IMG/VR virus record: IMGVR_UViG_3300045988_184134
Direction: 5' to 3' (one strand)
Length of the DNA: 64,000 bases
DNA from: a virus
The position numbers and the translations under genes are program-made. This document shows positions 314 to 63,283 of the stretch, piece by piece. The first letter of the stretch is position 1. Each line of letters opens with the position of its first letter. The notes below the pieces were generated by a model, which saw only the letters and a list, made by a program, of their open reading frames with translations, ran no database searches and had not been told where the DNA came from.

Positions 314-423
314 GCCTCTCTATCAATCAATGTTCTGTCCTCCTTGCATATAAAAAAGCAGGCTCGTAAAAGAACCTGCTTTAGTGGTCGTTAATGCACT
401 TTTTGGTTTACAATACCCAGTTT

Positions 424-450
424 ACTCAATTCGCACAAACGTGCAAGAAG
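424..450 (-). promoter_or_regulatory. promoter-like element TTGCAC-GTTTGTGCGAATTG for the HTH gene ending at 313
   Basis: -35 and spacer motif are clear; -10 is weak (TAAACT). Confidence 0.35.
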
Positions 451-466
451 GCAACATAAAACGGTT

Positions 467-3364: not shown

Positions 3365-3494
3365 AAAAAGAGCGGGCCTCCCGCGTGGGAAGTCCGCTCT
3401 TCAAGCGAAATTGTGAATACGAAGGGCAAGTCGCCTTTTCGATTATGTTATCTATCGTACACTTTTATCTTACGCAATTCGCATATTTTGACAA
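3365..3494 (-). promoter_or_regulatory. module copy 1 (TTGTCA-N16-TAAGAT promoter, leader, terminator) upstream of 3005..3337
   Basis: Same P1, P2 and conserved CGTATTCACAATTTCGCTT box as copy 4; terminator AGAGCGGAC…GCCCGCTCT plus U5 at 3365..3400. Confidence 0.55.
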
Positions 3495-4844: not shown

Positions 4845-4983
4845 TAAAAAAGAGCGGGCCTACCCCGGAATGGGATAAGTCCGCTCTTAAAACAGATTGT
4901 GAACGATAGAAAATCGTAACATCTTTATGTGTTTGGTATCTATCGCACAATCAATATTGTAGTCAATTCGAAAGGAATGGCAA
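4845..4983 (-). promoter_or_regulatory. module copy 2 (TTGCCA-N16-TACAAT promoter, leader, terminator) upstream of 3667..4824
   Basis: Divergent leader that keeps P1 (GCGATAGA…TCTATCG) and CGTTCACAATCT; terminator AGAGCGGAC…GCCCGCTCT plus U6. Confidence 0.5.
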
Positions 4984-8698: not shown

Positions 8699-8899
8699 CT
8701 ACTCAACCTGAAGCACTGCCTGCATTGAGGTGTGCTGTTTCCGCTTTGCACGTGAAACGGCATGCTGCCTGACCGCCTGGCGGATGGCTGCGTTTGTGTG
8801 TTGGATGCTGGCGGTTTCCTCACGCGAAAAGTTTTTGTCCGTATTTCCTTGAAGATTAGACTCAGTTACAGCCTTTGCAAACTTAATAGATGTCGTCAT
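8699..8899 (-). CDS. small basic protein (66 aa)
   Basis: Internal ATG at 8899 preceded by GGAGG-CAGCT; trimmed from ORF-track 8699..8935. Confidence 0.3.
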   Translation of the reverse strand: MTTSIKFAKAVTESNLQGNTDKNFSREETASIQHTNAAIRQAVRQHAVSRAKRKQHTSMQAVLQVE

Positions 8900-9683
8900 A
8901 GCTGCCTCCGATTCCGGCCCAAAGAGCTTCATCACTCAAGTCGTTGCGAGGGCACTTGATAATGCCCGCTTCTCTTAAAATTTGTCTTGCTTCCTTTGGC
9001 GTTAAGCCGTATTGCTTGGCGAGATTCGATAGAGACTGATTTGGGATAGCTCTGGCTTGTGTAATCAATCGCCTTTTCTTTTCTGTCCAATCGATTGCTA
9101 AGCTCTTGTTTTTTGGAGCTGAGAGAGCGGTTCTTTCAAGGTCTTTTTCGAGGTCTTTTTGGTATTTTTTTGCGGCCGCCTGAATGCCGCTGACCGTCAT
9201 TCCCCATTTATCAGCAATCTTTTTATAAGACATGCCACTGATGTAGTCTTCATATATTTGTTTGTTTCTGGCGTGCTTTTCCTGAACATCTTTCTGGCGA
9301 TAGAGGCGCGTCTTCGCCAAACCTTCACGCTCTTTTTGATACTTTTTCACGATTGACCGAACGCAGCTACTGGTAACGCCCCATTTCTCCGCTATTTTGA
9401 TGCAAGACGCACCACTTATAAACTCTTCATAAATTTGCTTGTTTCTGGTATGTTTTGCCTGTGCATTTTTCTGCCAGTCAAGGCGTGTCTTCGTTAAACC
9501 ATATTTGGGGTCAGAACGTAGAATTTCGACAATTCTATAGCAAGAAAGGCTATATTTGTCCGCCAACTCCAAGACACATACACCATCCATATAATCTCTG
9601 TAAATGGCGTCATTGCGTTCTTTCAAAGATTCATAGACGCCGTTATTCTTTGCCTTCATCATAGTATCGCTGCTTCTCATCAC
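8883..9683 (-). CDS. transcription regulator with four tandem HTH repeats (sigma-70 region-4 / HTH_23-like)
   Basis: Repeated units YRDYMDGVCVLELADKYSLS / YEEFISGASCIKIAEKWGVTSS / YEDYISGMSYKKIADKWGMTVS / SLSNLAKQYGLTPKEARQIL. Confidence 0.55.
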   Translation of the reverse strand: MMRSSDTMMKAKNNGVYESLKERNDAIYRDYMDGVCVLELADKYSLSCYRIVEILRSDPKYGLTKTRLDWQKNAQAKHTRNKQIYEEFISGASCIKIAEKWGVTSSCVRSIVKKYQKEREGLAKTRLYRQKDVQEKHARNKQIYEDYISGMSYKKIADKWGMTVSGIQAAAKKYQKDLEKDLERTALSAPKNKSLAIDWTEKKRRLITQARAIPNQSLSNLAKQYGLTPKEARQILREAGIIKCPRNDLSDEALWAGIGGSYDDIY

Positions 9684-12540: not shown

Positions 12541-12634
12541 AAAAGAATACCCCGGCAGGCACGCATGGTGTTCCGCCGGGGTACAATTATTTATCTTACA
12601 ATATCAATTGTAGGCAATTCGCACAGATGGTCAA
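12541..12634 (-). promoter_or_regulatory. module copy 6, short form (TTGACC-N16-TACAAT promoter, then terminator, then RBS of the helicase)
   Basis: TGTGCGAATTG spacer motif; hairpin TACCCCGGCGG…CCGCCGGGGTA plus UUCUUUUU. Confidence 0.5.
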
Positions 12635-12914
12635 GCGCTTTTTATCGTATTTTGTTTTGAGTTTTGCGAGCACAAAAACAACGTCCACCCGTGATTTACG
12701 GATGGACGTTCAATCTTACGCAGCTACATGTGCTGCTACGATGCTTTCGGACGACATGTAGTCGATACCGTCCTCGTTTCAATCTTACGCAGTCACACGG
12801 GCTGCTACGGCAAAATTACATAACAAAGAATTTTGCATATATTCAGCATTGTATATTCTGCCACTATTGGTTCTACGTTATTTTTGTTTGCTATCACCGC
12901 ATCTCTTTGCGGTT

Positions 12915-16136: not shown

Positions 16137-16736
16137 TCACTCCTTTATGACGGTATAGTTGCCCGTGGCAAAGCCCAGCAGCTTGTTGTAAAGTTCCGCA
16201 GCAATTTCAATGAATGTCTCGCTGCAAGGGCTTATCCTGTGCAGGAATCGCTTGTCTTGCTGCATAGACGATGCCATGTTAAAGGCAATGGCAAGAACCT
16301 TTTTCTGCATACGGCCGAAAGTCACGCCTCTCATTTCCACACTGTCAGGCGTCGCTGCCCACACGGATGCCTGTACTGTAATGGCCCACAGGTCCGCATC
16401 CCAGAATCGAGCGTTTTCGTTGCCCATCAAAGGCCGCATAATGCGCCAGGCGTTCGCATAGCTTTTGCCTTCGACATTATCAATGGCAGGGCCAAAGAAA
16501 CCGTCGGTTTTGTTGCTGAGTTCAATGAGACGCTCAGCCATCTTGGTGGCAGCGTAGGCCAGAGACTTGGCATCGGTGTCGTTCATTTCGATAGTCAGCT
16601 CTTCCCCATCGGGCTTGATGTACTTATACTTGTTCTCACCGATGGCTGCACTCTCCCACAGGATGCAGGGCAGTTCCTTCAGCACGGTCTTGCTTGCACC
16701 AGCCTTCGCTTTTTCAATATAACTGCTGTTTGACAT
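16137..16736 (-). CDS. hypothetical protein (199 aa) translationally coupled to the macro gene
   Basis: Stop is 4 nt from the macro start codon. Confidence 0.5.
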   Translation of the reverse strand: MSNSSYIEKAKAGASKTVLKELPCILWESAAIGENKYKYIKPDGEELTIEMNDTDAKSLAYAATKMAERLIELSNKTDGFFGPAIDNVEGKSYANAWRIMRPLMGNENARFWDADLWAITVQASVWAATPDSVEMRGVTFGRMQKKVLAIAFNMASSMQQDKRFLHRISPCSETFIEIAAELYNKLLGFATGNYTVIKE

Positions 16737-17555: not shown

Positions 17556-17876
17556 TTAGCCTTCGATATCGAAAGTGTAGCCCTTCACGGTCATAGTGAC
17601 CAGGCCGCTGCAAGACTTGCACTTTACGCCGTCCAGGCTGACATCGAGAGTCAGGCTGGAATCTTCGTTGTCCAGCCAGCTGGGCCGCATGTAGGCAGCG
17701 AGGTCGTGCAGCGCACCGATGACGTAAGCAACCAGGTCCTCATCATCCAGAGTCTGAGCAATCACGTCGTTTTCCTTGTCAGCGGGAAAGCCGATGGAAG
17801 CGGTGATGCTGTCAAGGGTGTTGTCGCCCTTGGAACGGAAAGCGGTGGCGCTGAACTCAATCAGGTTGGTACTCAT
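17556..17876 (-). CDS. hypothetical protein (106 aa), paralogue of 18065..18385
   Basis: Shares FSATAFRS…WLDNEDSSLTLD… with the neighbouring cassette; has its own promoter and terminator. Confidence 0.5.
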   Translation of the reverse strand: MSTNLIEFSATAFRSKGDNTLDSITASIGFPADKENDVIAQTLDDEDLVAYVIGALHDLAAYMRPSWLDNEDSSLTLDVSLDGVKCKSCSGLVTMTVKGYTFDIEG

Positions 17877-18064: not shown

Positions 18065-18385
18065 TTAGTCTTCGAAATTGAAGGTGAAGCCACTTTCTTT
18101 CATAGCGACAAGGCCGCCGCGCGTCTGACATTTGTTTCTATCGAGAAAGGTTTCAAGCGTCAGGCTGGTGTCCTCATTGTCCAGCCATTTGGGGCGCAGG
18201 TCGCTGATAAGGTTGTACAGTGCTGCGACAGCATGGACAATCAGTTTCTCTTCGCCCAGCATGTTTCCAATCACTTCGTCGTCGTTCTCCACAGGGACGC
18301 TGATGGAAGCCGAGAGACTTTCGAGGTTGTTGTTGTCATCGTTGCGGAATGCGGTAGCTTCGAATTTGAGAGTACAAGTGTTCAT
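18065..18385 (-). CDS. hypothetical protein (106 aa), paralogue of 17556..17876
   Basis: AAAGGAGAA RBS before the internal Met MNTCTLKFEATAF; similar terminator to the sister cassette. Confidence 0.5.
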   Translation of the reverse strand: MNTCTLKFEATAFRNDDNNNLESLSASISVPVENDDEVIGNMLGEEKLIVHAVAALYNLISDLRPKWLDNEDTSLTLETFLDRNKCQTRGGLVAMKESGFTFNFED

Positions 18386-18435
18386 TTTTGATGTTCTCCT
18401 TTGTATGTTATTTGGTTTTCCTTGCACTTTAAATT

Positions 18436-18470
18436 GTACGCAGTTCGCAAGGGTAGTCAATCGGTCCAAT
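18436..18470 (-). promoter_or_regulatory. promoter TTGACT-N16-TACAAT (spacer TTGCGAACTG) for 18065..18385
   Basis: Sequence match. Confidence 0.5.
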
Positions 18471-18551
18471 AGCGCAGAATCCGGCTGGGTCGGATTTTGC
18501 AAAAAAAAATTTTGCGCAGTTAATTTTTCCTTTTACATATTTTTTATAAAT

Positions 18552-21029: not shown

Positions 21030-21647
21030 TTATTTCGTTTCTTTCTTCGGATAGACACCGCTCGTTGTAGCCGTAAACAGCTTTTGGAAGATTGCTACAG
21101 CTACCAGGCAGAACCTCTCTGATTTTGTTCTTCCTTCTACTTGCAGGCAGCCGCTTTCCTGAATTTGTAGCAGCGCCTTATAGATGGCTCCATAGATGGT
21201 CTTTCGGAGGTCTGCATCTTCTTTGAGTACAACCACGATGTCTTTCGATGCCCAGGTGCAGACGCACATGAGTTCTGAAAACTTTTCGTCTTCTCCTTCA
21301 AAGGCCAGCTTCCCGCCGGGTGCGAAAGCTGCAAGTGCCAGTTTGTAAAGCTCCTCGTCATCTTTTGGCGTTTCGAGTTTGTCAGACTCTTTTGTGGCAT
21401 CCCATACTTTAAGGATGCCGTCAGCATATTTTGCCGACATGAAAGCAAGTCTGGTTCGCGTAAAATCGTTTGCCTTTACACGCTGCTCAGTTTCGGGATT
21501 GTAACAGGTCGTACTATCTACAATGTACTGCTGCTTCATCGTCGTCTCGATAGCTCGAACTGCAGGCATCAGACTTTTTGTATAGCTTTCAAGGGCTTGA
21601 AAGCCTTTATCCCCTTCGCTATTGCGATTCTTGTAATTGCACTTCAT
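21030..21647 (-). CDS. hypothetical protein (205 aa)
   Basis: Intact ORF in operon spacing. Confidence 0.45.
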   Translation of the reverse strand: MKCNYKNRNSEGDKGFQALESYTKSLMPAVRAIETTMKQQYIVDSTTCYNPETEQRVKANDFTRTRLAFMSAKYADGILKVWDATKESDKLETPKDDEELYKLALAAFAPGGKLAFEGEDEKFSELMCVCTWASKDIVVVLKEDADLRKTIYGAIYKALLQIQESGCLQVEGRTKSERFCLVAVAIFQKLFTATTSGVYPKKETK

Positions 21648-21658
21648 AGATGACTCCG

Positions 21659-22270
21659 TTACGCAATAGAATTAACCATATCCAGCTCCATACAGAAAAG
21701 TACGAAGGCCAGGTTGGTGATTTTATCGGCATCTGTATCGAGATGCCTGCCGAGTTCCTTGACCGCGCCGCCGTCCTTGAGGCTCTTGGCCGCCTGGTAG
21801 ATGAGCATGTAGGTGTTGACGTAGATAGCCTGCTGTTTCACGCGGTCCTTGGTAATGTGCTCCGGCATGCAATCCTCTGACAGCGACTTAATGAGCGGAT
21901 ACCAGCAGGAAAGGTACAAAGCACCATCCTCATCGTTCATCGCCTGCTGAATCTTGACCTGATACTTCGGGTAGTTGCCATTCACGACCTCAATGAACTC
22001 GGTATCTTTGAACTCATCGCGGTGGCAGTGAAGCCACAGGATAGCGTTGGCAAGGTCCATGCAGATAAGCGCCAGCTTTTCGGCTTTGGAATCATCCAGC
22101 TGAACCGTATCGAAGCTGTCAGCATCGATGTCATACTGCTTGTAAATGTTCACCAGCTTGTAGCTGTTCTCCCCTGCGCGTACCTTCTTCTTGATGAAGT
22201 CGGTAAAGTCGTGCGCCAAGGCCTCATAGGCTTTCTGCTGCTCTTCGGCAATCGTATTCTGTTCGCTCAT
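21659..22270 (-). CDS. hypothetical protein (203 aa), paralogue of 23498..24109
   Basis: Start trimmed to the Met with AAAGGAGAA-CTCAAC-ATG. Shares YKLVNIY and EDCMP…KSLK.GG…DADKI.NLAF with the paralogue. Confidence 0.5.
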   Translation of the reverse strand: MSEQNTIAEEQQKAYEALAHDFTDFIKKKVRAGENSYKLVNIYKQYDIDADSFDTVQLDDSKAEKLALICMDLANAILWLHCHRDEFKDTEFIEVVNGNYPKYQVKIQQAMNDEDGALYLSCWYPLIKSLSEDCMPEHITKDRVKQQAIYVNTYMLIYQAAKSLKDGGAVKELGRHLDTDADKITNLAFVLFCMELDMVNSIA

Positions 22271-22284
22271 GTTGAGTTCTCCTT

Positions 22285-22728
22285 TTATCTTAATTTGGTC
22301 CTGATTTCTTCGAGCATCATGCCCAGTTTGTTCTGACCGTGAACGCCCTTGCATCTGGGACACTGGCAGTCGCCCCAATAGTTATCGTGCCAGCCTGTCG
22401 TGTCCTCAATAATGTGCCGGTCGCCTGTAGCGAGCAGTCGCTGTTTGAACTCTTCGTTCTGGTTGAACTTGGCATACAGCACCCGGCGCATCGCTTCGTC
22501 TCGAACTTTGTCCCAATCTGGAGAAAGTTGGACCCGGCGGCCGAGTCGCTTAGCCTCGTTCGGCATGAGACAGGCAAACTGGCGTCTTTCCTCCGGCGGG
22601 ACCTTTTGTGCCTGGAACGCTGCCTCCGCGTTGAGGTAGTAGATTCCATCTAGCACAAAGGAGCAAGGATAATAATTGCTCAGAAACCCGTAGGTCGGGT
22701 CGTCTTTCTTAAACCGCAGCAGATTCAA
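22285..22728 (-). CDS. NADAR-domain protein (YbiA-like N-glycosidase / ADP-ribose processing)
   Basis: YGFLSNYYPCSFVLDGIYYLNAEAAFQAQK…EAKRLGRRV…DWDKVRDEAMRRVLYAKFNQNEEFKQRLLATGDRHIIEDTT matches the NADAR signature. TTG start with GGAGGG RBS, overlapping the upstream stop. Confidence 0.65.
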   Translation of the reverse strand: MNLLRFKKDDPTYGFLSNYYPCSFVLDGIYYLNAEAAFQAQKVPPEERRQFACLMPNEAKRLGRRVQLSPDWDKVRDEAMRRVLYAKFNQNEEFKQRLLATGDRHIIEDTTGWHDNYWGDCQCPRCKGVHGQNKLGMMLEEIRTKLR

Positions 22729-23371
22729 TGTGCATTCCCTCCATAACCCCGGCGGGCGTATCTTTGAGAACCTTGTAGCGCATCGTCGTGGCACCAAGCA
22801 GACCGTTGAAGACGGTCACGGCGGTATGCACGAACAGAGGGTTCTGCAAGGTCATCTTGCCGTTTGTATCCCACTGGCCTTTGAGTTCAGCGGCCGCATC
22901 GTACACAACCATCATCATGGCTTCATACATGTCGGACATCAGCTGTCGGTCGTACTTCTTCAAAGCATAGTAGCTTGGTAGGTTGTAAACGCGGCCGAGG
23001 AGCGGCTCGTCATACAAGGGCGAACCTTTCGCAACCATCGTATTGTAGACTTTGGGCCAGGCAGCTTCTTTCGGCTTGCCGGTGGTTGCCTGCATCTCGA
23101 TGTTCTTGAAACCAGCCGTCATGTTGTACAGCACCATGAGCCGCTCGGCAAGCAAGACGGAAGATTCAGCCAGGTGCTTTGCTTCCTCATTGGTCATCGC
23201 AACCTGCATGGCCGTGCTGTCCGAGTCGTTGCCATAATAGAAATACTGCTTGCGCCCGGCGGCAGCTTTCTGTACGAGCTTCTTTGCCAGCTGGCTTTCG
23301 ATGTAATTGTAGATGTCGTTTTCCAACTCACAGGTGATGTGCGTTGCGGTATAATGGATATTTTTGTTCAT
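22709..23371 (-). CDS. hypothetical protein (220 aa) co-transcribed with NADAR
   Basis: Stop overlaps the NADAR start; preceded by leader/terminator module copy 7. Confidence 0.5.
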   Translation of the reverse strand: MNKNIHYTATHITCELENDIYNYIESQLAKKLVQKAAAGRKQYFYYGNDSDSTAMQVAMTNEEAKHLAESSVLLAERLMVLYNMTAGFKNIEMQATTGKPKEAAWPKVYNTMVAKGSPLYDEPLLGRVYNLPSYYALKKYDRQLMSDMYEAMMMVVYDAAAELKGQWDTNGKMTLQNPLFVHTAVTVFNGLLGATTMRYKVLKDTPAGVMEGMHIESAAV

Positions 23372-23403
23372 TGGTTTACCTCTTTGTGTATAATAAAAAG
23401 AAA

Positions 23404-23490
23404 GAGCGGTCGAGCCGCTCTCCTCAAAACACTTATTTAGCTTACAATTTTCATTCTATGCAATTCGCACAGACACGCAAGGCAAAATGG
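23404..23490 (-). promoter_or_regulatory. module copy 7, short form (TTGCGT-N16-TAGAAT promoter, then terminator, then RBS of 22709..23371)
   Basis: TGTGCGAATTG spacer motif; hairpin GAGAGCGGCTCGACCGCTCTTTC plus U5. Confidence 0.5.
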
Positions 23491-23497
23491 CGACGCC

Positions 23498-24109
23498 TCA
23501 CGGATTCATCTCGTAGGCAATCAGTGCATCGTTGAAATACTTGAAAGCAAGATTTCCGATTTTATCTGCGTCTTTCGGCAGCTTGTCCACCATGCGTTTG
23601 ATGGAACCACCTGTCTTGAGAGACTTCATTGCCAGGTGAACATTCCAGTACATGTTGGTGTATACCAGCTGCCACTTCTTTTTGTCTCCAACATAGGCAT
23701 CCGGCATACAGTCTTCTGCCACAAGGCGAATAAGCATGTCCCACGCATCCAGGTAGAGAGGACTTGTATCATCGTTCAGCTTATGGATGATTTGCTTCAG
23801 ATAGGAAGTGTAGTCTTCCCCACTGATGTCAACAAGCTCGATGTCTGCGAACTTGTCGCGGAAGTAATACAGCCAAAGCGTTGCTTTCGCAAGGTCACAG
23901 CTGGCCGCAGCAAGCAGCTGAGCTTTCTGGTCCTGCAAAGTCACAATCTTGGCATCAGGGTCATCCAAGCCCTTCTCACCATAGAGATTGACCAGCTTGT
24001 ACTGGTCTTTGCCGACTCTATCCTCTCTGCGGATAAACTCTTTGAAGTCTTCCACGAAGGCAATGTATGCCTGGACCTGTGGGTCGTTTTTCGGGTTGAA
24101 CTCACTCAT
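23498..24109 (-). CDS. hypothetical protein (203 aa), paralogue of 21659..22270
   Basis: AAAGGAGAAGCGCAC-ATG; promoter with CGTTCGAATTG spacer at 24133..24165. Confidence 0.5.
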   Translation of the reverse strand: MSEFNPKNDPQVQAYIAFVEDFKEFIRREDRVGKDQYKLVNLYGEKGLDDPDAKIVTLQDQKAQLLAAASCDLAKATLWLYYFRDKFADIELVDISGEDYTSYLKQIIHKLNDDTSPLYLDAWDMLIRLVAEDCMPDAYVGDKKKWQLVYTNMYWNVHLAMKSLKTGGSIKRMVDKLPKDADKIGNLAFKYFNDALIAYEMNP

Positions 24110-35073: not shown

Positions 35074-35220
35074 TTTTATATGAACCACCGGCCCAGGAAA
35101 AAGCCGATGGGGTGAATACAAGCGGAAAGCAAACATGTCAAAGTGAGAGGAAACCACGTCGTACACACCGGCAGGAAGAGGTTAAGACCCGCCGGAACCC
35201 AATTCCGCTTGTACAATTCT

Positions 35221-35260
35221 AATTCTACGCAATTCGCACAAATGCACAAGACATTATTTC
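35221..35260 (-). promoter_or_regulatory. promoter TTGTGC-N16-TAGAAT with TGTGCGAATTG spacer motif; heads the about 230-nt leader of the flotillin gene
   Basis: Sequence match; an upstream intrinsic terminator at 35271..35310 insulates it. Confidence 0.5.
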
Positions 35261-51708: not shown

Positions 51709-51876
51709 AAAGAGTTTTCTCCTTTCAAAAGAAAAACCGCTCGGTGTAGCAACCGAACGGCAGGAATTGTGAATTATATAAAGGAATAGTATCTATGCTA
51801 CATTCATAATTGTACGCATATCGCACAGTCGTGCAATAGAAAAAGCCGCCCTCTTGAAAGAGGACGGCAGTTAATG

Positions 51877-53930: not shown

Positions 53931-54112
53931 AAAAAGAGCGGGCCTCCTGACGAATCAGGAAGTCCGCTCTTGGCAGTTTGTTAAGGGTCAAAGCTCAAGC
54001 AGCCGGATTGGTTCCGGTGGACAACTTACAACATAGTAAGTTTCCAAATTGCTTGCGATAAATGGTATCCATTAACTGCTTTTTATTATAGGCAGTTCGC
54101 AAGCAGCGTCAA
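53931..54112 (-). promoter_or_regulatory. module copy 3 (TTGACG-N16-TATAAT promoter, different leader, same terminator hairpin) upstream of 53472..53795
   Basis: Terminator AGAGCGGACTTCC…GGAGGCCCGCTCT plus U6 at 53931..53970; about 130 nt more of leader before the RBS. Confidence 0.45.
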
Positions 54113-56560: not shown

Positions 56561-56584
56561 ATTACATTCTCCTTTTTTAGACGC

Positions 56585-56719
56585 AAAAAGGCGGACCCCC
56601 GAAAATTTCGGAAGGTCCGCCTAAAAGCGAAATTGTGAATACGAAGGGCGCTTTGCCTTTTCGATAACTGTTATCTATCGTACAACTACCATTGTATTCA
56701 CTTCGCACAGCTGTGCAAG
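56585..56719 (-). promoter_or_regulatory. module copy 4: promoter (TTGCAC-N17-TACAAT), conserved structured leader, intrinsic terminator, then RBS of 55415..56560
   Basis: On the minus strand: TTGCACAGCTGTGCGAAGTGAATACAAT; P1 CGATAGATAAC…ATCG; P2 AAGGC-AAAGC-GCCCTT; box CGTATTCACAATTTCGCTT; hairpin GGCGGACC…GGTCCGCC plus U5; AAAAAGGAGAA; ATG. Confidence 0.55.
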
Positions 56720-56722
56720 CAA

Positions 56723-57758: not shown

Positions 57759-58133
57759 TCACCTCGGTAAATTAGAATTCACAAAAGCTATAAGCTGCTG
57801 TAGGTAATAGGAAACCTGGGTCAGGATTGCTTGATAGTCAACCTCGATGCCAAGATACTGCATAAGATGATACACCGCATATAGCGTGATGCCACCCAGT
57901 ACGATTGTCTCAAACACTCGACTGACACCGCGAGCAACAAACCAAACCACCATAACAATCAAAGCAATATCGACTACAACTCGAATATCACCAGACTGCA
58001 CAAGAGAATTGATGCTGTTCGCCACATCGTTCATGGCAGACATAAAAATCGCCTCCTTTGCGTTGATGCTACCATTTTTTATCCTACGCCGTTCGCACAT
58101 TTCCGCAATGAAACGGCATAACTCGTAAAACAT
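57759..58133 (-). CDS. membrane protein (124 aa)
   Basis: Central hydrophobic helices IVMVVWFVARGV… and GGITLYAVYHL. Confidence 0.4.
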   Translation of the reverse strand: MFYELCRFIAEMCERRRIKNGSINAKEAIFMSAMNDVANSINSLVQSGDIRVVVDIALIVMVVWFVARGVSRVFETIVLGGITLYAVYHLMQYLGIEVDYQAILTQVSYYLQQLIAFVNSNLPR

Positions 58134-58183
58134 TCATAATAAAAAAGGGCAGCACCACGAGGATGCTGCCGATATGTGTGGGA

Positions 58184-59152
58184 TTACTTAATAGCCTTGC
58201 AGTTTGCAACGTACAGGTACGCAGATTCGTCGCCGCGATACAAGGTTACCACGAAAATACCACGGTTGCCGTTAAGGATGTTCTCCTTTGCGGCCTCATA
58301 GTCCTTGTTGTCACGACGGACCCAGTTGCCATTTTTCCTCATATCCGTGATTTGCCGCTGGAGGGTCTCCAGGGCTTTCGCAGAGGTGATAGCAACTTCC
58401 ATAGCGCTGCCAATAGAGTCGTACACGACGTAGACCCTATCGGGGACGCTGCTGGCAGCCGGTGCAGCCGGAGCCTGAGGAGCAGGCAAAGCCGAGGTTG
58501 CAGCAGGCTTCGGAGCAGCGGGTGCATTGTCGGTCACACCCGGAATCTTGCGGCCGTGAATCTCAAGGTAGCCCGCCGGGTTTGCAATGTATGCAGCCCA
58601 GTGCATCTTGATGGCGCTTGCCATAGCGACCAGTTCCTGGCTGGTGCATCCAACCGTAATGAACGTAGCCTTTGCACCCTGTTTCTTCTGATAGCCACCA
58701 AGATTGTTCTTCTCGCCTTCAGCTTCCGTAACCGAGATTGCATAGTCCATCTTAGAGCCAGGGGCAAGAGCAATCTGACGCCACATGACGGGGCGGTCGC
58801 CTTTGGCATCACTGCCGCCATTGTACGTAAAAATAGCCTGCGGGTACTTTTCTCCTGCTGCTTTTGCATCATTCAGAGCCTTCTGACGGCGTTTGTGCAT
58901 CACACCACTCAGAATTGCCTCGCAGAAATACAAGGCACCGTCGCCTCCATTGATGCGCAGAGCGCCCTCAACGTGGGCAATCGGGGAGCAGCCATTTGCG
59001 CGGCCCGTGTGCGACACGAACGAAAGATGAACTTTGTCAATATTGGCCCAATCCATCTTGACCTTGAGGAAACTCTTCGGCCCCTGGATTTGGTAAATGA
59101 CGCTATCATCTTTTTCCTTTACCTTTGTGTTGCGTGCGTTGCTGTTTTCCAT
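58184..59152 (-). CDS. hypothetical protein with Pro/Ala-rich linker (322 aa)
   Basis: Two globular parts joined by …PAAPKPAATSALPAPQAPAAPAAS…. Confidence 0.45.
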   Translation of the reverse strand: MENSNARNTKVKEKDDSVIYQIQGPKSFLKVKMDWANIDKVHLSFVSHTGRANGCSPIAHVEGALRINGGDGALYFCEAILSGVMHKRRQKALNDAKAAGEKYPQAIFTYNGGSDAKGDRPVMWRQIALAPGSKMDYAISVTEAEGEKNNLGGYQKKQGAKATFITVGCTSQELVAMASAIKMHWAAYIANPAGYLEIHGRKIPGVTDNAPAAPKPAATSALPAPQAPAAPAASSVPDRVYVVYDSIGSAMEVAITSAKALETLQRQITDMRKNGNWVRRDNKDYEAAKENILNGNRGIFVVTLYRGDESAYLYVANCKAIK

Positions 59153-59168: not shown

Positions 59169-60386
59169 TTATGCAGTTACATTTAAATCACGAGGAATAA
59201 ACGGGATATACTTGAATTCCTGTTTTTCCGCGCATTTTACGATACTTTGATTGGCGGGAATGAATGGTCGTAAAGCCTTTCCCTGCGATACTGCAAGGAA
59301 GTAATCATCCACGCCTTTGTAAGCCGTGCCCCAGTTGAAGCGCGTCATAGTGATGCCATAACGAGCTGCAATCGCATAGAGCTTTTTCAGCGCATTGCGA
59401 ACATGCTCATTGCTTTCTCGGTCCGAATCGAAGGCATCAGCCACATGAGTAACGCCCAACGCTTTGAGGTGCTCACAAGTCGCTTCCCATTGGTTAAAGC
59501 AGTTGACTCCAGCAAGGGCAATGTACGGATTCGAGTTACCACTCAGCGTGCAGGCAATGTGAGCTTTCAAAGCTCCTTCCGTGATGTACACGGTCTTGTC
59601 CTTTGCGCATTTGGGCATAACTCCCGGAATACCATAGCTTGCGATGTTTTTGGCGCTACACCCGTTCTCATAACCTGGAGATGAGAACCAACGATAACGC
59701 TTGTCACCATCATCGAACCGAATCTGCATACCAACAATCTGATTATCGGCATTAAAGTACGGGATGAAGAATCCGGGCTTCGTACAAGCAGAGAAGGCTT
59801 TTCCGTTTTTCTCATAGAAGCCGGGAATTCCAATAAAGGAAATCTTCAGCTTCTTGAGTCTCACGAATACGCCAGCCCAGTGTTCAGGAACAGAACGATA
59901 CAGGCATCGGTCGATGACCTCGTCCGTCAAACCTCGCTTGCGCAGATTTTCTCGATGCTCAGGATTCAGAGTCAGCTCATTCAGAACCGCTCTATACACC
60001 TTATCGAGTTCTGCATCAGGACGTGCCTGTAAGCTGAGGTCAATGTCCGATTCCGGCCTCATCACAATTTTACATTTTGTGTGCGCTGGTTTGCCGCTGA
60101 GGTCCATCGAAATGGCATGCTTGGCGAACTGTCTGTCGTTAGGGTCAATTCCCGTAAACATGCAGTAAAGGTCAATCATGCCGCCACTGTATGGGCATCC
60201 GCTGCAACAATGGAAGCAGTTGTACTGTCCCTTTGCAACATTGACGCTGAAATAGACTGGTTGCTTATTGCGCCCGCATACGCCATGCGGGCACTGCACC
60301 TCTATTTCACCGGCACGCGTAACCTTTCCACGGGTCTTGGCCCCCACAAGGTCCAAAACCGTGTCCATAGAAAAGCTCCATGCCAC
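59169..60386 (-). CDS. DnaG-type DNA primase (CHC2 zinc finger + TOPRIM)
   Basis: CPHGVCGRN…YNCFHCCSGCPYSGG zinc finger; TOPRIM Glu (TVYITEGALKAHIA) and DxD (ADAFDSDRESNEH). Confidence 0.8.
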   Translation of the reverse strand: MAWSFSMDTVLDLVGAKTRGKVTRAGEIEVQCPHGVCGRNKQPVYFSVNVAKGQYNCFHCCSGCPYSGGMIDLYCMFTGIDPNDRQFAKHAISMDLSGKPAHTKCKIVMRPESDIDLSLQARPDAELDKVYRAVLNELTLNPEHRENLRKRGLTDEVIDRCLYRSVPEHWAGVFVRLKKLKISFIGIPGFYEKNGKAFSACTKPGFFIPYFNADNQIVGMQIRFDDGDKRYRWFSSPGYENGCSAKNIASYGIPGVMPKCAKDKTVYITEGALKAHIACTLSGNSNPYIALAGVNCFNQWEATCEHLKALGVTHVADAFDSDRESNEHVRNALKKLYAIAARYGITMTRFNWGTAYKGVDDYFLAVSQGKALRPFIPANQSIVKCAEKQEFKYIPFIPRDLNVTA

Positions 60387-60428: not shown

Positions 60429-61331
60429 TTAGAGGTTGTACTGTCCCGCAATCAGGCGAGCGGCAGCCTGAATCGGTTTACCGTTGTACTGAGGCCGCAG
60501 GAAGTAGGTGATGGCCCCACCGTTACCGGAGTCCATCATTTCCTTCATGGTCTGCCCAGCAAAACGACCAGCCATAACTTTGAACGCCAGAGCTTTTTCA
60601 AGCGTCATAGGCTCATTGTCGGGAGTCGGATTTGCAGCCGGGACAGGCGGAACAGGGAAAGTGTTCTGAACAGGCGCAGCGACAGGCTTTACAGGTTCAT
60701 CCACTTTTTCTTCAACCTGAGTCGGAGCCGCTTTCGGTGCAGCTTTTTTGACGGTCTTCTTTGCAGCAGGTACATCAGTCTTGGGGTCGGTCTCTTTTTC
60801 CTTCTCCTTGACCTTGTCCTGAAGCTGCTGCGGCACAGGTGGCACCGGGAAATTCGTCAAAACGCCGCCGTCAACGGGGGCATCCGGCAAATCGGCCGTT
60901 GTCTTGTACACGGTAGTGACATCTTCGATGTACTCAGCGTCCGCCGGGGTGCCAAATCCGCAGTTGCCGAGGGCTTTGCGAATCGCGGCCGTACCGGCGT
61001 TCTGGATGTAGTCCTTGCCGAACTGGTCATCGCTGTGATAGCGGGTGGCGAAAGCGTTCGCCAAAAGGTTGCCATTTTCGTCGATGACGCGGCCCTCGAC
61101 CGTTGCCATCTGGTCATTGGCCCGATAGACAATCTGTTCCAAGCGCCCGCCGGGGTGCTTCAGTCGGAACCACAGCATAGCAGGCTCTGCCTGGAGATAC
61201 ATGCGGTTGTTACCTTCCGCATCCTGAAAGCAGGACGTTACCAGGCGGGGGTCAAAACCATCTACTGCATTGACATTAGCCATTGCCGTGAGAGTCTTCT
61301 TCTGGGCATCTTTGATTGTTTCTTTGGTCAT
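60429..61331 (-). CDS. possible Rad52/Sak-like single-strand annealing protein with Pro/Lys-rich linker
   Basis: …GRVIDENGNLLANAFATRY…QNAGTAAIRKALGNCGFG resembles the Rad52 …[20 protein letters not shown] region; weak. Confidence 0.4.
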   Translation of the reverse strand: MTKETIKDAQKKTLTAMANVNAVDGFDPRLVTSCFQDAEGNNRMYLQAEPAMLWFRLKHPGGRLEQIVYRANDQMATVEGRVIDENGNLLANAFATRYHSDDQFGKDYIQNAGTAAIRKALGNCGFGTPADAEYIEDVTTVYKTTADLPDAPVDGGVLTNFPVPPVPQQLQDKVKEKEKETDPKTDVPAAKKTVKKAAPKAAPTQVEEKVDEPVKPVAAPVQNTFPVPPVPAANPTPDNEPMTLEKALAFKVMAGRFAGQTMKEMMDSGNGGAITYFLRPQYNGKPIQAAARLIAGQYNL

Positions 61332-61370
61332 TTCGATTTACTCCTTTTGTTTTTTTGTTGGTTACAAATA

Positions 61371-61505
61371 CAAAAAGAGCGAACCTCCCATAATAGGAAG
61401 TCTGCTCTTTAAGCGAAATTGTGAATACGCAGGGCTTTCGCCTTTTCGATTGTTATGGTATCTATCGTACAACTATCATTGTATCCACTTCGCACAAATG
61501 TGCAA
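61371..61505 (-). promoter_or_regulatory. module copy 5 (TTGCAC-N16-TACAAT promoter, leader, terminator) upstream of 60429..61331
   Basis: P1; P2 with a GAAA loop (AAGGC-GAAA-GCCCTG); conserved box; terminator AGAGCAGAC…GTTCGCTCT plus U5. Confidence 0.55.
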
Positions 61506-61558
61506 GCAACCTATGACACAAAAAATGCCGCCTACCCGAAGGCAGACGGCAAATGGTA

Positions 61559-63283
61559 TCAGAGGAGATTCTTCTTGACGATGTTGCAAAGTACACGAGG
61601 CATCGTTTCAAGATTGCTGATGTCGATGAAATTGTCACCAAATTCATGTTCAACGCTGCCACGGGAAGAACCGATACCTGCACCAATGACGATGATGTTG
61701 TACTTCTTCCTCAGGTCTTTGATAACCTGCTGGATGCTTTCGCGGCCACCGTCAGAGCAACCATCCGTACTAACAATCAGCAGGCGCTTCTCTGCCTGTT
61801 CGCGTCTGAGCTTTTCGCCCATATAGCGCATAGCAGGCATAGTAGGCGTGCCGCCGCGAGATGCCATACCGGTGATGCGGTACTTGTCCTTGCCATCAAT
61901 GTCCTGGTCAACATACTCAAGAATCTGCGTTCCGCCATAGTTGCTTGCTGTAGTGTATCCGCAGATATAACACGGCAACTCCATGCGTTCACAGAGGTCC
62001 TGAATGATGATGCCGGTACGAACCGAAGCCTGAATTGCAGACCCGCTCATAGAACCGGATTCGTCACAAAGGTAGCCAACTGCAAGGCGAGGGTTGTCTC
62101 TGGGGAAATTCTTGCGGCTGAAGATTTTTCCGTCCTGATGATAGGCAAGCCGAGCCTCTACGCGGCTGCCCATAGGCAAACCGGCAACAGCATCGTCATT
62201 CTCTTCATCACGGATTACGGTCTTCAGTCGGCGTTCGAGATTCTTTGTGACACCGAGCAAATCGCTGGACAGCCTTTTGTAGGTTGCCACATTGGAGTCA
62301 CTTACCTTCTCTGCCCGAGTGACTTCGAGTCTCGTACCAACAGTCTTCCTCATTTCCGCAGCTTCTTTTTTGAGCTGTGCATTGAGTTCTTCGTTAGCCT
62401 GCTCAGTAGCTGCCTCAATCTTGCGCTGGTTTTCGATGCTCTTCAAGTCCATCGTTGCAGCGCCCAAATCAGGTTGACCAATAGAAGAACCTTTCTCGTG
62501 AGACACATTGTTATGGTCAGTACGGCCAGTGTCGGATTCACTCGCTGCCTGTTTTCCGTTGCTATAATCCTTAGCTTCCTTAGAACGAGCGCCTTTGTCT
62601 GTAATGCTCTGGGAGTCACGGTCGCCCTCTTTGGTTGCGCCAGCGCGGTTAGCAGCCTTTTGGGCGGCTTTTGCTGCCTTTTGAAGTGCTTTCTGCAGGA
62701 CACTCTGAGGAATGTTCTGGATAGAATCATTCTGGCCCTGCTGACTGCTGTTGTTTCCGTTCTGGCTCTGCTGGTTATTGCTATTGCCATTTTGGCTTTG
62801 GCTCTTATCGCCGGAGGAACCGTTCTGCCCAGAAGGGCCGCTGTTTCCCATACCACCAGAAGGTGAGCCGGAATCTCCACCGCCTGCGCTCTGGTCCATC
62901 TTTGTTTCCTTCTTGATGAAGTCTTTCAAAAGCGGATACAGGGCGCAGCACAGTTCGTTGACGCCTTTGAGTCTTTTTAACGAGTCGCGTTCGTATTTGC
63001 AGTCGTCAATAAGTTCGATGCACTCGTCGAAGATGTCATCGTATTCTGACGGCATATCTTCGGTCATAGTAAAATCGAACTTTGCATACAGCAAAACTTG
63101 CTCCATCATAGCCTCAAACGGAGAGCTCTTCTTCAGCGTTTCGCCAAAGCTCTGGCTCTTGGAAATGAGTGCGTCATTGATAGTAGCCAGTTCGGTAGAA
63201 GCCAGGCCGCCGTACATGGAACGAATCTCACGCTCAATGAAGCCGTCTTCGATGGAATTCTCAATGTTCTTAGCAATGCTCAT
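61559..63283 (-). CDS. von Willebrand factor A (vWA) domain protein with Ser/Gly/Asn/Gln-rich low-complexity centre
   Basis: MIDAS motif LCDESGSMSG (DxSxS) plus downstream IVSTDGCSDGG; about 90-aa low-complexity stretch (GGGDSGSPSGG…QNGNSNNQQSQNGNN). Confidence 0.65.
   Translation of the reverse strand: MSIAKNIENSIEDGFIEREIRSMYGGLASTELATINDALISKSQSFGETLKKSSPFEAMMEQVLLYAKFDFTMTEDMPSEYDDIFDECIELIDDCKYERDSLKRLKGVNELCCALYPLLKDFIKKETKMDQSAGGGDSGSPSGGMGNSGPSGQNGSSGDKSQSQNGNSNNQQSQNGNNSSQQGQNDSIQNIPQSVLQKALQKAAKAAQKAANRAGATKEGDRDSQSITDKGARSKEAKDYSNGKQAASESDTGRTDHNNVSHEKGSSIGQPDLGAATMDLKSIENQRKIEAATEQANEELNAQLKKEAAEMRKTVGTRLEVTRAEKVSDSNVATYKRLSSDLLGVTKNLERRLKTVIRDEENDDAVAGLPMGSRVEARLAYHQDGKIFSRKNFPRDNPRLAVGYLCDESGSMSGSAIQASVRTGIIIQDLCERMELPCYICGYTTASNYGGTQILEYVDQDIDGKDKYRITGMASRGGTPTMPAMRYMGEKLRREQAEKRLLIVSTDGCSDGGRESIQQVIKDLRKKYNIIVIGAGIGSSRGSVEHEFGDNFIDISNLETMPRVLCNIVKKNLL

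Follow-up and report, generated by a model that had tools for sequence, protein, structure and literature searches.

A repeated promoter-leader-terminator cassette as a possible attenuator of a putative Rad52-like/primase operon

The window, a 64,000-nucleotide stretch of DNA from an IMG/VR virus record, carries copy 5 of a repeated cassette in which a family-specific promoter is followed by a structured leader RNA, a conserved box and a strong intrinsic terminator. Copy 5 lies directly ahead of an operon encoding a putative Rad52-like protein and a primase, and its terminator falls between the promoter and the ribosome-binding site, so downstream expression requires read-through. We tentatively interpret copy 5 as a self-contained promoter-proximal attenuator that gates this operon and that would be relieved by a putative factor encoded by the element (probability about 0.4).

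Layout of the cassette and the downstream operon

The genes of the window are all encoded on the minus strand, and copy 5 is read on that strand, as are all features described below. The upstream boundary of the cassette is the intrinsic terminator of a VWA/CobT-like gene (61559-63283), located at 61520..61551 and consisting of TGCCGTCTGCC-TTCG-GGTAGGCGGCA followed by T6. The promoter motif that had been proposed for this site, TTGCAC-N16-TACAAT with the spacer motif TGTGCGAAGTG, is present in full at 61478-61505 on the minus strand. The -35 hexamer TTGCAC (61500..61505), of which TTG alone is conserved across the family, is separated by a 16-nt spacer from the -10 hexamer TACAAT (61478..61483), and the spacer motif (61486..61496) is family-specific, with an invariant TGCGA core at about -23 to -19. 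Compared with the sigma-70/sigma-A hexamers (TTGACA/TATAAT), TTGCAC matches at 3/6 positions and TACAAT at 5/6, with N16 between them; a generic promoter scan misses this promoter because of the scan's -35 rule. The leader begins six nucleotides past TACAAT with an invariant stretch of 17 nt (TTGTACGATAGATACCA, 61456..61472), in which positions 2-14 are at least 94% conserved and which contains both a -10-like TACGAT and the 5' strand of the P1 helix (61465-61472). It is followed by the P2 hairpin GGC-GAAA-GCC (61433..61442; 3 bp, -4.4 kcal/mol) and by the 3' strand of P1, GCGTAT (61425..61430), which in copy 5 forms five pairs only, one of them G.U. Directly after GCGTAT (together 61411-61430) is the box TTCACAATTTCGCTT (61411-61425), in agreement with the original prediction; its longer form, CGTATTCACAATTTCGCTT, shows no differences among the three long-form copies in the window, and its single-stranded core, TTCACAAT (61418..61425), is at least 94% conserved at T1, T2, A4, A6 and T8. 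A candidate antiterminator hairpin, UUCGCUU-AAA-GAGCAGA (61401..61417), with a C.A mismatch in copy 5, overlaps the 5' arm of the leader terminator. This terminator, AAAGAGCAGAC...GTTCGCTCTTT (61374-61410, with U5 to 61371), was also correctly predicted; written out as AAAGAGCAGACTTCC-TATTAT-GGGAGGTTCGCTCTTT plus U5 (61371-61410), it forms 16 pairs, interrupted by a single A.C mismatch (-19.6 kcal/mol), and is of the intrinsic (Rho-independent) type, with a G+C-rich hairpin immediately 5' of a U tract. The Shine-Dalgarno sequence AAAGGAG (61341..61347) and the ATG at 61331 of a 300-aa gene follow.

The operon consists of this 300-aa gene (60429..61331), which has no Pfam hit, a DUF3854 primase gene (59169-60386) and a gene encoding 322 aa (58184-59152), in that order and with no strong internal terminator, and it ends in a terminator at 58148-58170, beyond which lies the next promoter of the family (58081-58108). 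The AlphaFold model of the 300-aa protein has a pLDDT of 75.5, with values >90 over most of residues 11-140, and its best PDB match is the N-terminal domain of human RAD52 (E 4.5e-4, probability 1.0, TM about 0.36-0.40 on the target), so that a Rad52-like protein is a plausible, weakly supported assignment. The proposed location of the module ahead of a Rad52-like gene and a primase is supported by this fold match and by the DUF3854 gene that follows. The gene order of VWA gene, module, Rad52-like gene and primase is conserved in relatives, and the primase of the operon shares ~30% identity with its counterparts on large Clostridia plasmids.

A family of promoter-coupled leaders

Related leaders were identified with a covariance model (R1) built from 14 leaders, all from other contigs, with no window sequence included. 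In the window, this model matched 3366-3462 (71 bits, E 3.8e-13), 56585-56685 (64.5 bits, E 1.2e-11), copy 5 over its full length at 61373-61472 (62.1 bits, E 4.1e-11), 4848-4950 (50.6 bits, E 1.3e-08), 53932-54024 (31.7 bits, E 0.00018) and 51733-51803 (18.5 bits, E 0.14). The copy 5 cassette is more than a chance resemblance, and the repeated module of promoter, leader, box and terminator that had been proposed from it is real. Across the 859 kb of loci retrieved, R1 detected 181 leaders, a single 10-kb locus containing as many as six, and an HMM search of all loci resulted in at least 170 distinct full-length leaders, with the same promoter type 5-6 nt ahead of 170/170 of them. Because every leader is found directly behind the same promoter, the unit is promoter plus leader and not a standalone RNA motif. 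The promoter pattern TTG-N9-GCGAAnTG-N2-TAnnnT has 17 matches in the window (0.17 expected), all on the minus (coding) strand, and the spacer motif is present in 17/17 of these promoters as well as upstream of the 170/170 distinct leaders. A strong terminator is located between promoter and ribosome-binding site at about 10/17 of the window promoters, short forms included. In the short-form cassettes, found at 12585-12647, 23431-23493 and 397-459 (minus strand), the same promoter is followed by TTGTAAG(A/C)TAAATAA or similar and leads straight into an intrinsic terminator (promoters at 12607, 23453 and 419), without P1/P2 or box; the placement of a terminator right behind the promoter therefore extends beyond the long-form leaders.

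A pattern combining the promoter with the first leader bases was found in 95 IMG/VR loci and, among the metagenome matches listed, in >118 loci, nearly all of these listed matches being from the human gut and on contigs whose length reaches 374 kb. The same pattern matched twice in a set of 185,579 species-representative genomes, in a Clostridiales MAG and in a Lachnospiraceae MAG (L268), the latter of which was rejected as a family member since no leader is present there and the match is probably due to chance. A 16-mer scan of IMG/VR gave 24 matches, of which 7 were real and near-identical to window copies, the rest being chance matches. The whole window had no match in Rfam 15 at gathering thresholds, and nothing meaningful was found at the copy 5 locus at E<=10 (the best entry, sok, scored 22 bits against a threshold of 59). 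When the module and its surrounding 8 kb were compared by blastn with GenBank phages and PLSDB plasmids, nothing matched, and a full-text literature search with literal motif strings returned unrelated primer matches only. The putative leader/attenuator family thus has no counterpart in Rfam 15 or in the annotated phage and plasmid collections searched, and the kind of element that it appears to represent, a promoter-proximal transcription attenuator, is known.

Around the start site of many copies, the first transcribed bases mirror the -10 hexamer as an inverted repeat of the form TACAAT-N4-5-ATTGTA (61478-61483 with 61467-61472 in copy 5), and TACAAT then recurs in the 3' strand of P1 at about +50. 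The similarity of the promoter spacer GCGAAyTG to the reverse complement of the box (GCGAAATTG) was judged to be due to chance, as the spacer is constant where the box changes. A potential antisense promoter inside the leader (TTGTTA-N18-TATCAT) is found in copy 5 only and was discarded as not conserved.

Structure and covariation of the leader RNA

In most members of the family, P1 is a helix between the 5'-terminal eight nucleotides, UUGUACGA, and UCGUACAA ~40 nt downstream, and one subfamily carries the compensatory variant UUGUACAA/UUGUACAA. A further hairpin, P1a (UAGAU-AnC-AUCUA), often sits inside P1. The P2 hairpin, which adjoins the 3' strand of P1, is always present and highly variable in sequence, with stems such as GGCGC/GCGCU, GGCAC/GUGCU, GGCAUA/UAUGCU, AGCGU/ACGCU, CACACAU/AUGUGUG, GAAAGA/UCUUUC and CCGAA/UUCGG. 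In a covariance-model alignment of 95 distinct leaders, standard pairs make up 93.8% of cells, compared with 79.1% after column shuffles (0/500 of which reach the observed value) and 38-47% with slid partners, and changes on both sides of the pair are seen at 4/4 pairs of P2, 4/6 of P1 and 11/12 of the terminator. A hand-padded alignment agrees with this result, with P2 in that alignment being fitted by construction, and in an alignment-free test the hairpin adjoining P1 averaged 4.35 bp versus 2.29 bp for shuffled sequences. RNAalifold applied to a plain MAFFT alignment recovered the terminator only, with covariation; the other helices were missed because P2 was misaligned, and the padded hand and covariance-model alignments were needed to recover them.

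Conserved unpaired nucleotides include GAUAGAUAnCA and the box UUCAYAAU, and the 5' arm of the terminator, GCgGACU, is conserved in sequence. Overall, the conserved nucleotides belong to the box and to the stems of P1 and P1a, and the junctions are nearly empty. The first 17 nt of the leader are invariant whatever their pairing partner, and the same 5' domain is found with two different classes of box and terminator. At one terminator position (alignment A5, columns 139/168), 45/95 distinct leaders have an A.C mismatch; a 5' arm conserved in sequence together with a frequent A.C mismatch is unusual for an intrinsic terminator. Two other interpretations of the 5' domain were rejected, namely a mini-ORF at the start of the RNA (ATG-TAC-GAT-AGA-TAA), as position 15 can be any base and position 1 varies, and mimicry of the Cas12a repeat hairpin by UAGAU/AUCUA, as the order of the arms is reversed.

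A candidate antiterminator

The seven nucleotides past the box core, UUCGCUU, can pair with GRGCGGA at the base of the terminator 5' arm, and the resulting hairpin of 6-7 bp with a 3-4 nt loop, which lies over that arm, could act as a weak antiterminator. RNA prefixes ending after the 5' arm fold as P1/P2 plus this hairpin in the five leaders c56, c3, L122, L062 and L127, and the best pairing available to the post-box segment with the terminator arm has a mean of 5.35 bp, versus 3.88 bp for shuffled sequences. The two partners switch jointly between classes (UUCGC/GCGGA, UCUGC/GCAGA, UUUGUC/GGCAGA and UGAAC/GUUCA), with the arm GCAGAC accompanied by UCUGC or UUUGUC and with UGAAC/GUUCA belonging to a divergent leader; because the segments are ~10 nt apart and the classes few, this co-variation of box and terminator may partly reflect linkage. 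The antiterminator hairpin (-5.5 to -6.3 kcal/mol) is much weaker than the terminators (-20 to -25 kcal/mol) and would be relevant only if something stabilizes it. Observed and shuffled sequences did not differ in how well the 5' domain pairs with the antiterminator strand (4.51 bp each), and this lack of a general alternative pairing argues against a classical switch of the riboswitch type.

Features particular to copy 5

Among seven leaders folded or parsed by hand, copy 5 has the weakest P1 and the weakest antiterminator, and R1 scores it lowest among the window's three long forms. In its full-length minimum-energy fold, AGGCGAAA pairs with UUUCGCUU and replaces the three-pair P2. Strand exchange by such an anti-antiterminator was considered and rejected, as no enrichment was found in the family and the 8-bp AGGCGAAA/UUUCGCUU alternative occurs in copy 5 alone.

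Two orthologues of copy 5 (L264 and L269) are located upstream of proteins 91-99% identical to the product of the window gene, and both keep GGC-GAAA-GCC and have a fully paired terminator, AGAGCGGAC/GTTCGCTCT. The canonical GNRA loop reported for P2 does occur in copy 5 (61433-61442) but is not a conserved feature of the module, since paralogues have P2 loops such as AAAGC, GACUU, UAUUU and UACCU and GAAA is found only in copy 5, L264 and L269. The original prediction had also described a G-to-A change in the terminator stem, relative to copy 1 of the module, as compensated by a C-to-T change. This does not hold in detail: the A faces an unchanged C and is the sole A.C at that pair among 28 aligned leaders. 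As the orthologues' AGAGCGGAC/GTTCGCTCT are fully paired, the AGAGCAGAC of the window represents a private G-to-A SNP (position 61403), which changes the terminator from -24.8 to -19.6 kcal/mol, a cost of ~5 kcal/mol, and the antiterminator from -6.3 to -2.4 kcal/mol. The two T residues that replace C of copy 1 are paired with the neighboring G (as G.U) and A (as A-U). The terminator stem is preserved overall relative to copy 1, although not through the compensatory pair that was claimed.

Rearrangements at module copies

In one relative (L144), ~1 kb comprising a module and a PDDEXK_2 gene is inserted between the VWA and Rad52-like genes (L144 1665-2870), and the insert is flanked by two copies of terminator, promoter and 5' block that both align to window 61455-61558. 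In a second (L146), the equivalent of window 58108-56577 is joined to that of 61506-60923 via a single module (L146 2327-2477), which corresponds to about window 56577-56722. These junctions inside module copies suggest module-mediated recombination. The cassettes mark boundaries of gene cassettes at which rearrangements occur and bear on gene shuffling in large elements.

A tentative attenuator model and its alternatives

In the attenuator model that we favor, a putative sigma-A/sigma-70-type promoter with its TGCGA spacer element would initiate transcription ~6 nt past TACAAT. The first 8 nt of the RNA would pair ~40 nt downstream as P1, enclosing the small P2 hairpin, and would be followed by the conserved single-stranded box UUCACAAU and then by the strong intrinsic terminator ~25 nt ahead of the ribosome-binding site. 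By default, most transcripts would presumably end at this terminator as an RNA of ~100 nt. A putative trans-acting factor encoded by the element would provide read-through into the Rad52-like/primase operon by recognizing the invariant parts of the leader (the first 17 nt and/or the box) and acting locally, for instance by stabilizing the UUCGCUU/GRGCGGA hairpin that would sequester the base of the terminator 5' arm. Attenuation is favored because the terminator arm pairs with a conserved upstream competitor, local action because every operon retains a separate promoter and a terminator at its end, and recognition of the protein type over the pocket type because conservation is found in stems and in a single-stranded box and not in junctions. 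Against this model, no candidate RNA-binding antiterminator was found among the window proteins with Pfam and PHROGs, the antiterminator hairpin is weak relative to the terminator and is disrupted in copy 5 (-2.4 kcal/mol), and the invariant 17 nt with their ever-attached promoter indicate a signal at the DNA level that the model does not need. If the cassette is a regulated attenuator, it would define a new leader-RNA family supported by covariation and without an Rfam 15 match, and it would imply an undiscovered antitermination factor that governs much of the expression of an abundant uncultivated human-gut mega-element. A broader and rather doubtful extension is that a ~370-kb element of gut Clostridia runs a genome-wide antitermination regulon, in which dozens of operons would be controlled through a composite DNA and RNA signal (TGCGA element, fixed 17-nt start, folded leader, box and terminator) by one factor of a new family that mixes features of Q (promoter-coupled) and of N/RAT (RNA-coupled). 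For annotation purposes, the R1 model offers a means of directly locating the starts of transcription units in related contigs, whose proteins mostly lack known function.

The main rival is promoter-loaded antitermination of the Q type, which we consider unlikely. A DNA-binding factor would read the TGCGA spacer, comparable to the QBE of lambda, and load while the polymerase pauses at TACGAT, thereby conferring resistance to the terminator, and the RNA fold would serve mainly as a 5' stabilizer. The lambda PR'-tR' late region has this architecture of promoter, pause element and nearby terminator, and the cassette shares with PR'-qut-tR' a spacer element, an early -10-like hexamer, a terminator within ~100 nt and, as its probable default product, an RNA that is terminated early and therefore short. 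The Q-type mechanism alone accounts for the constant fusion of every leader to the same promoter, for the conservation of the TGCGA spacer in all window promoters and for the invariant first ~18 nt, a partner-independent block from the start site to about +18 that lies roughly at the expected sigma-dependent pause; TAnnnT was read by eye at about +2 to +9 in 9/15 window promoters, and the short-form promoters also enter terminators directly, without a box. However, it leaves the covariation of P2, the conserved box and the antiterminator pairing unexplained, processive antitermination would override the operon-end terminators that the cassette-driven operons possess, and the TG abuts the -10-like hexamer directly whereas an extended -10 has 1-nt spacing. 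No Q-family protein was found in the window with Pfam and PHROGs, and the cassette further differs from the lambda region in its covarying leader and box and in being present in dozens of copies per genome rather than one. An improbable alternative is a constitutive cassette with no dedicated regulator, in which the 5'-terminal helix blocks a 5' exonuclease, a leaky terminator sets low expression, and the repeats serve as portable cassettes and recombination sites; the terminated RNA might alternatively be an sRNA. That P1 pairs the very first nucleotides is consistent with this explanation, as is the unrelated leader at 35222, which also pairs its own 5' end, and so are the rearrangement junctions within modules and the combination of one 5' domain with two box/terminator classes. 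A precedent is provided by the PeSL cassettes of T4-type phages (PMC2839356, PMC4122927), which are likewise many near-identical promoter/stem-loop cassettes ahead of unrelated, mostly unknown genes in a large genome, with indel and rearrangement junctions within the cassettes; the window has 17 promoters per 64 kb. The PeSL stem-loop, however, is upstream of the promoter and not between promoter and gene, and nothing in PeSL corresponds to the ~55-nt fold, box and terminator (a ~100-nt leader) found here between promoter and Shine-Dalgarno sequence. Much leakage is, moreover, unlikely at terminators of this strength (-20 to -25 kcal/mol, U5-7), and the single-stranded box and the conserved arm GCgGACU indicate specific recognition.

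We give little credence to a put-, EAR- or canT-like RNA that acts in cis as a processive antiterminator, in which the P1/P2 fold would bind the polymerase and carry it through the terminator without protein. A small RNA of two to three stems right after the promoter and before a terminator would suit such a role, for which a phage and a mobile element of Firmicutes provide precedents (PMC11658703), and HK022 put, the B. subtilis EAR, Tn916 canT and pLS20 conAn2 are also structured 5' RNAs in terminator-containing operons of mobile elements. These RNAs, of which an element carries 1-2 copies, have processive effects that extend across kilobases and exceed the leader in size (canT requires 341-452 nt), whereas the cassette is multi-copy with its own adjacent terminator in each copy; a processive RNA would make that terminator pointless and would override the operon-end terminators, no Rfam match was found, and the conserved antiterminator overlap suggests local control. 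A metabolite- or ion-sensing riboswitch, with a three-way junction as aptamer and the antiterminator/terminator as expression platform, is highly improbable. Some features of the leader would be expected of one, namely stems that covary, conservation of unpaired nucleotides and a hairpin that competes with the terminator, but the exclusive pairing of aptamer and platform strands is not seen (4.51 bp, as in shuffled sequences), conservation is in stems with nearly empty junctions, the leader invariably comes attached to a single promoter type and is found ahead of unrelated genes, and the motif is restricted to one element family (two matches in the 185,579 species representatives, one of which lacks a leader).

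Returning to the attenuator model, its closest parallel is the RAT of BglG/SacY-LicT systems, in which part of a short weak hairpin similarly belongs to the 5' arm of a far stronger terminator and which likewise involves an antiterminator that on its own could not stop termination. The leader differs in showing no similarity to the RAT consensus in a comparison by eye and in being fused to a specific promoter, and no CAT_RBD or PRD Pfam domain was matched by the window proteins. Lambdoid nut sites resemble the leader in having a small hairpin and then a conserved single-stranded box shortly past the promoter, and the loop of copy 5 happens to be GNRA. A nut (boxA/boxB) reading was nevertheless rejected, as the P2 loop is not conserved in the leader family and the 3' half of the box switches with the terminator arm, CGCUU becoming CUG where the arm is GCAGAC, which is the behavior of a pairing partner rather than of a NusB/E site.

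The host element

Most window proteins remained without assignment in Pfam and PHROGs. Those assigned include a Y-family polymerase, a signal peptidase, a sortase, a flotillin, a UvrD-like helicase, a RecE/YqaJ exonuclease and metallophosphatases. Searches of the window proteins with Pfam and PHROGs (8/18 protein packs with Pfam only) gave no match for Q, NusG, CAT/PRD, ANTAR or sigma, nor for any other transcription-elongation factor or phage hallmark gene, and a search of the window for tRNA and tmRNA genes found none. The only protein in the window that resembles a transcription regulator is encoded at 8883-9683 (minus strand), just after the UvrD-like helicase gene; it has 266 aa and repeated HTH domains of the Mor family, which are underlain by a 177-nt tandem repeat in the DNA (9147-9500). 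Related contigs, among them OLOI01000001.1, OGWZ01000003.1 and OLVW01000002.1, are from human-gut metagenomes and reach 370-374 kb; IMG/VR lists such contigs as viral, and the primase resembles those of Clostridia megaplasmids. The element may be either a huge phage, in line with this listing, or a megaplasmid.

At 35076-35249 (minus strand), and in L025, L026, L028 and other loci, the same promoter is followed by a different leader of ~150 nt. The 5' end of the leader at 35222, UUGUACAAGCGG, pairs with CCGCUUGUACA far downstream, and this leader may represent a second structured family that also sequesters its 5' end. Neighboring genes that resemble paralogues by eye are found within 16137-16736, 17556-17876, 18065-18502 and 21030-24109 (minus strand), several of them with their own family promoter. 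Judged by eye, the product of 23498-24109 resembles that of 21659-22378, and the product of 22709-23371 resembles those of 21030-21647 and 16137-16736, while the products of 17556-17876 and 18065-18502 share SATAFR...WLDNED..SLTL.
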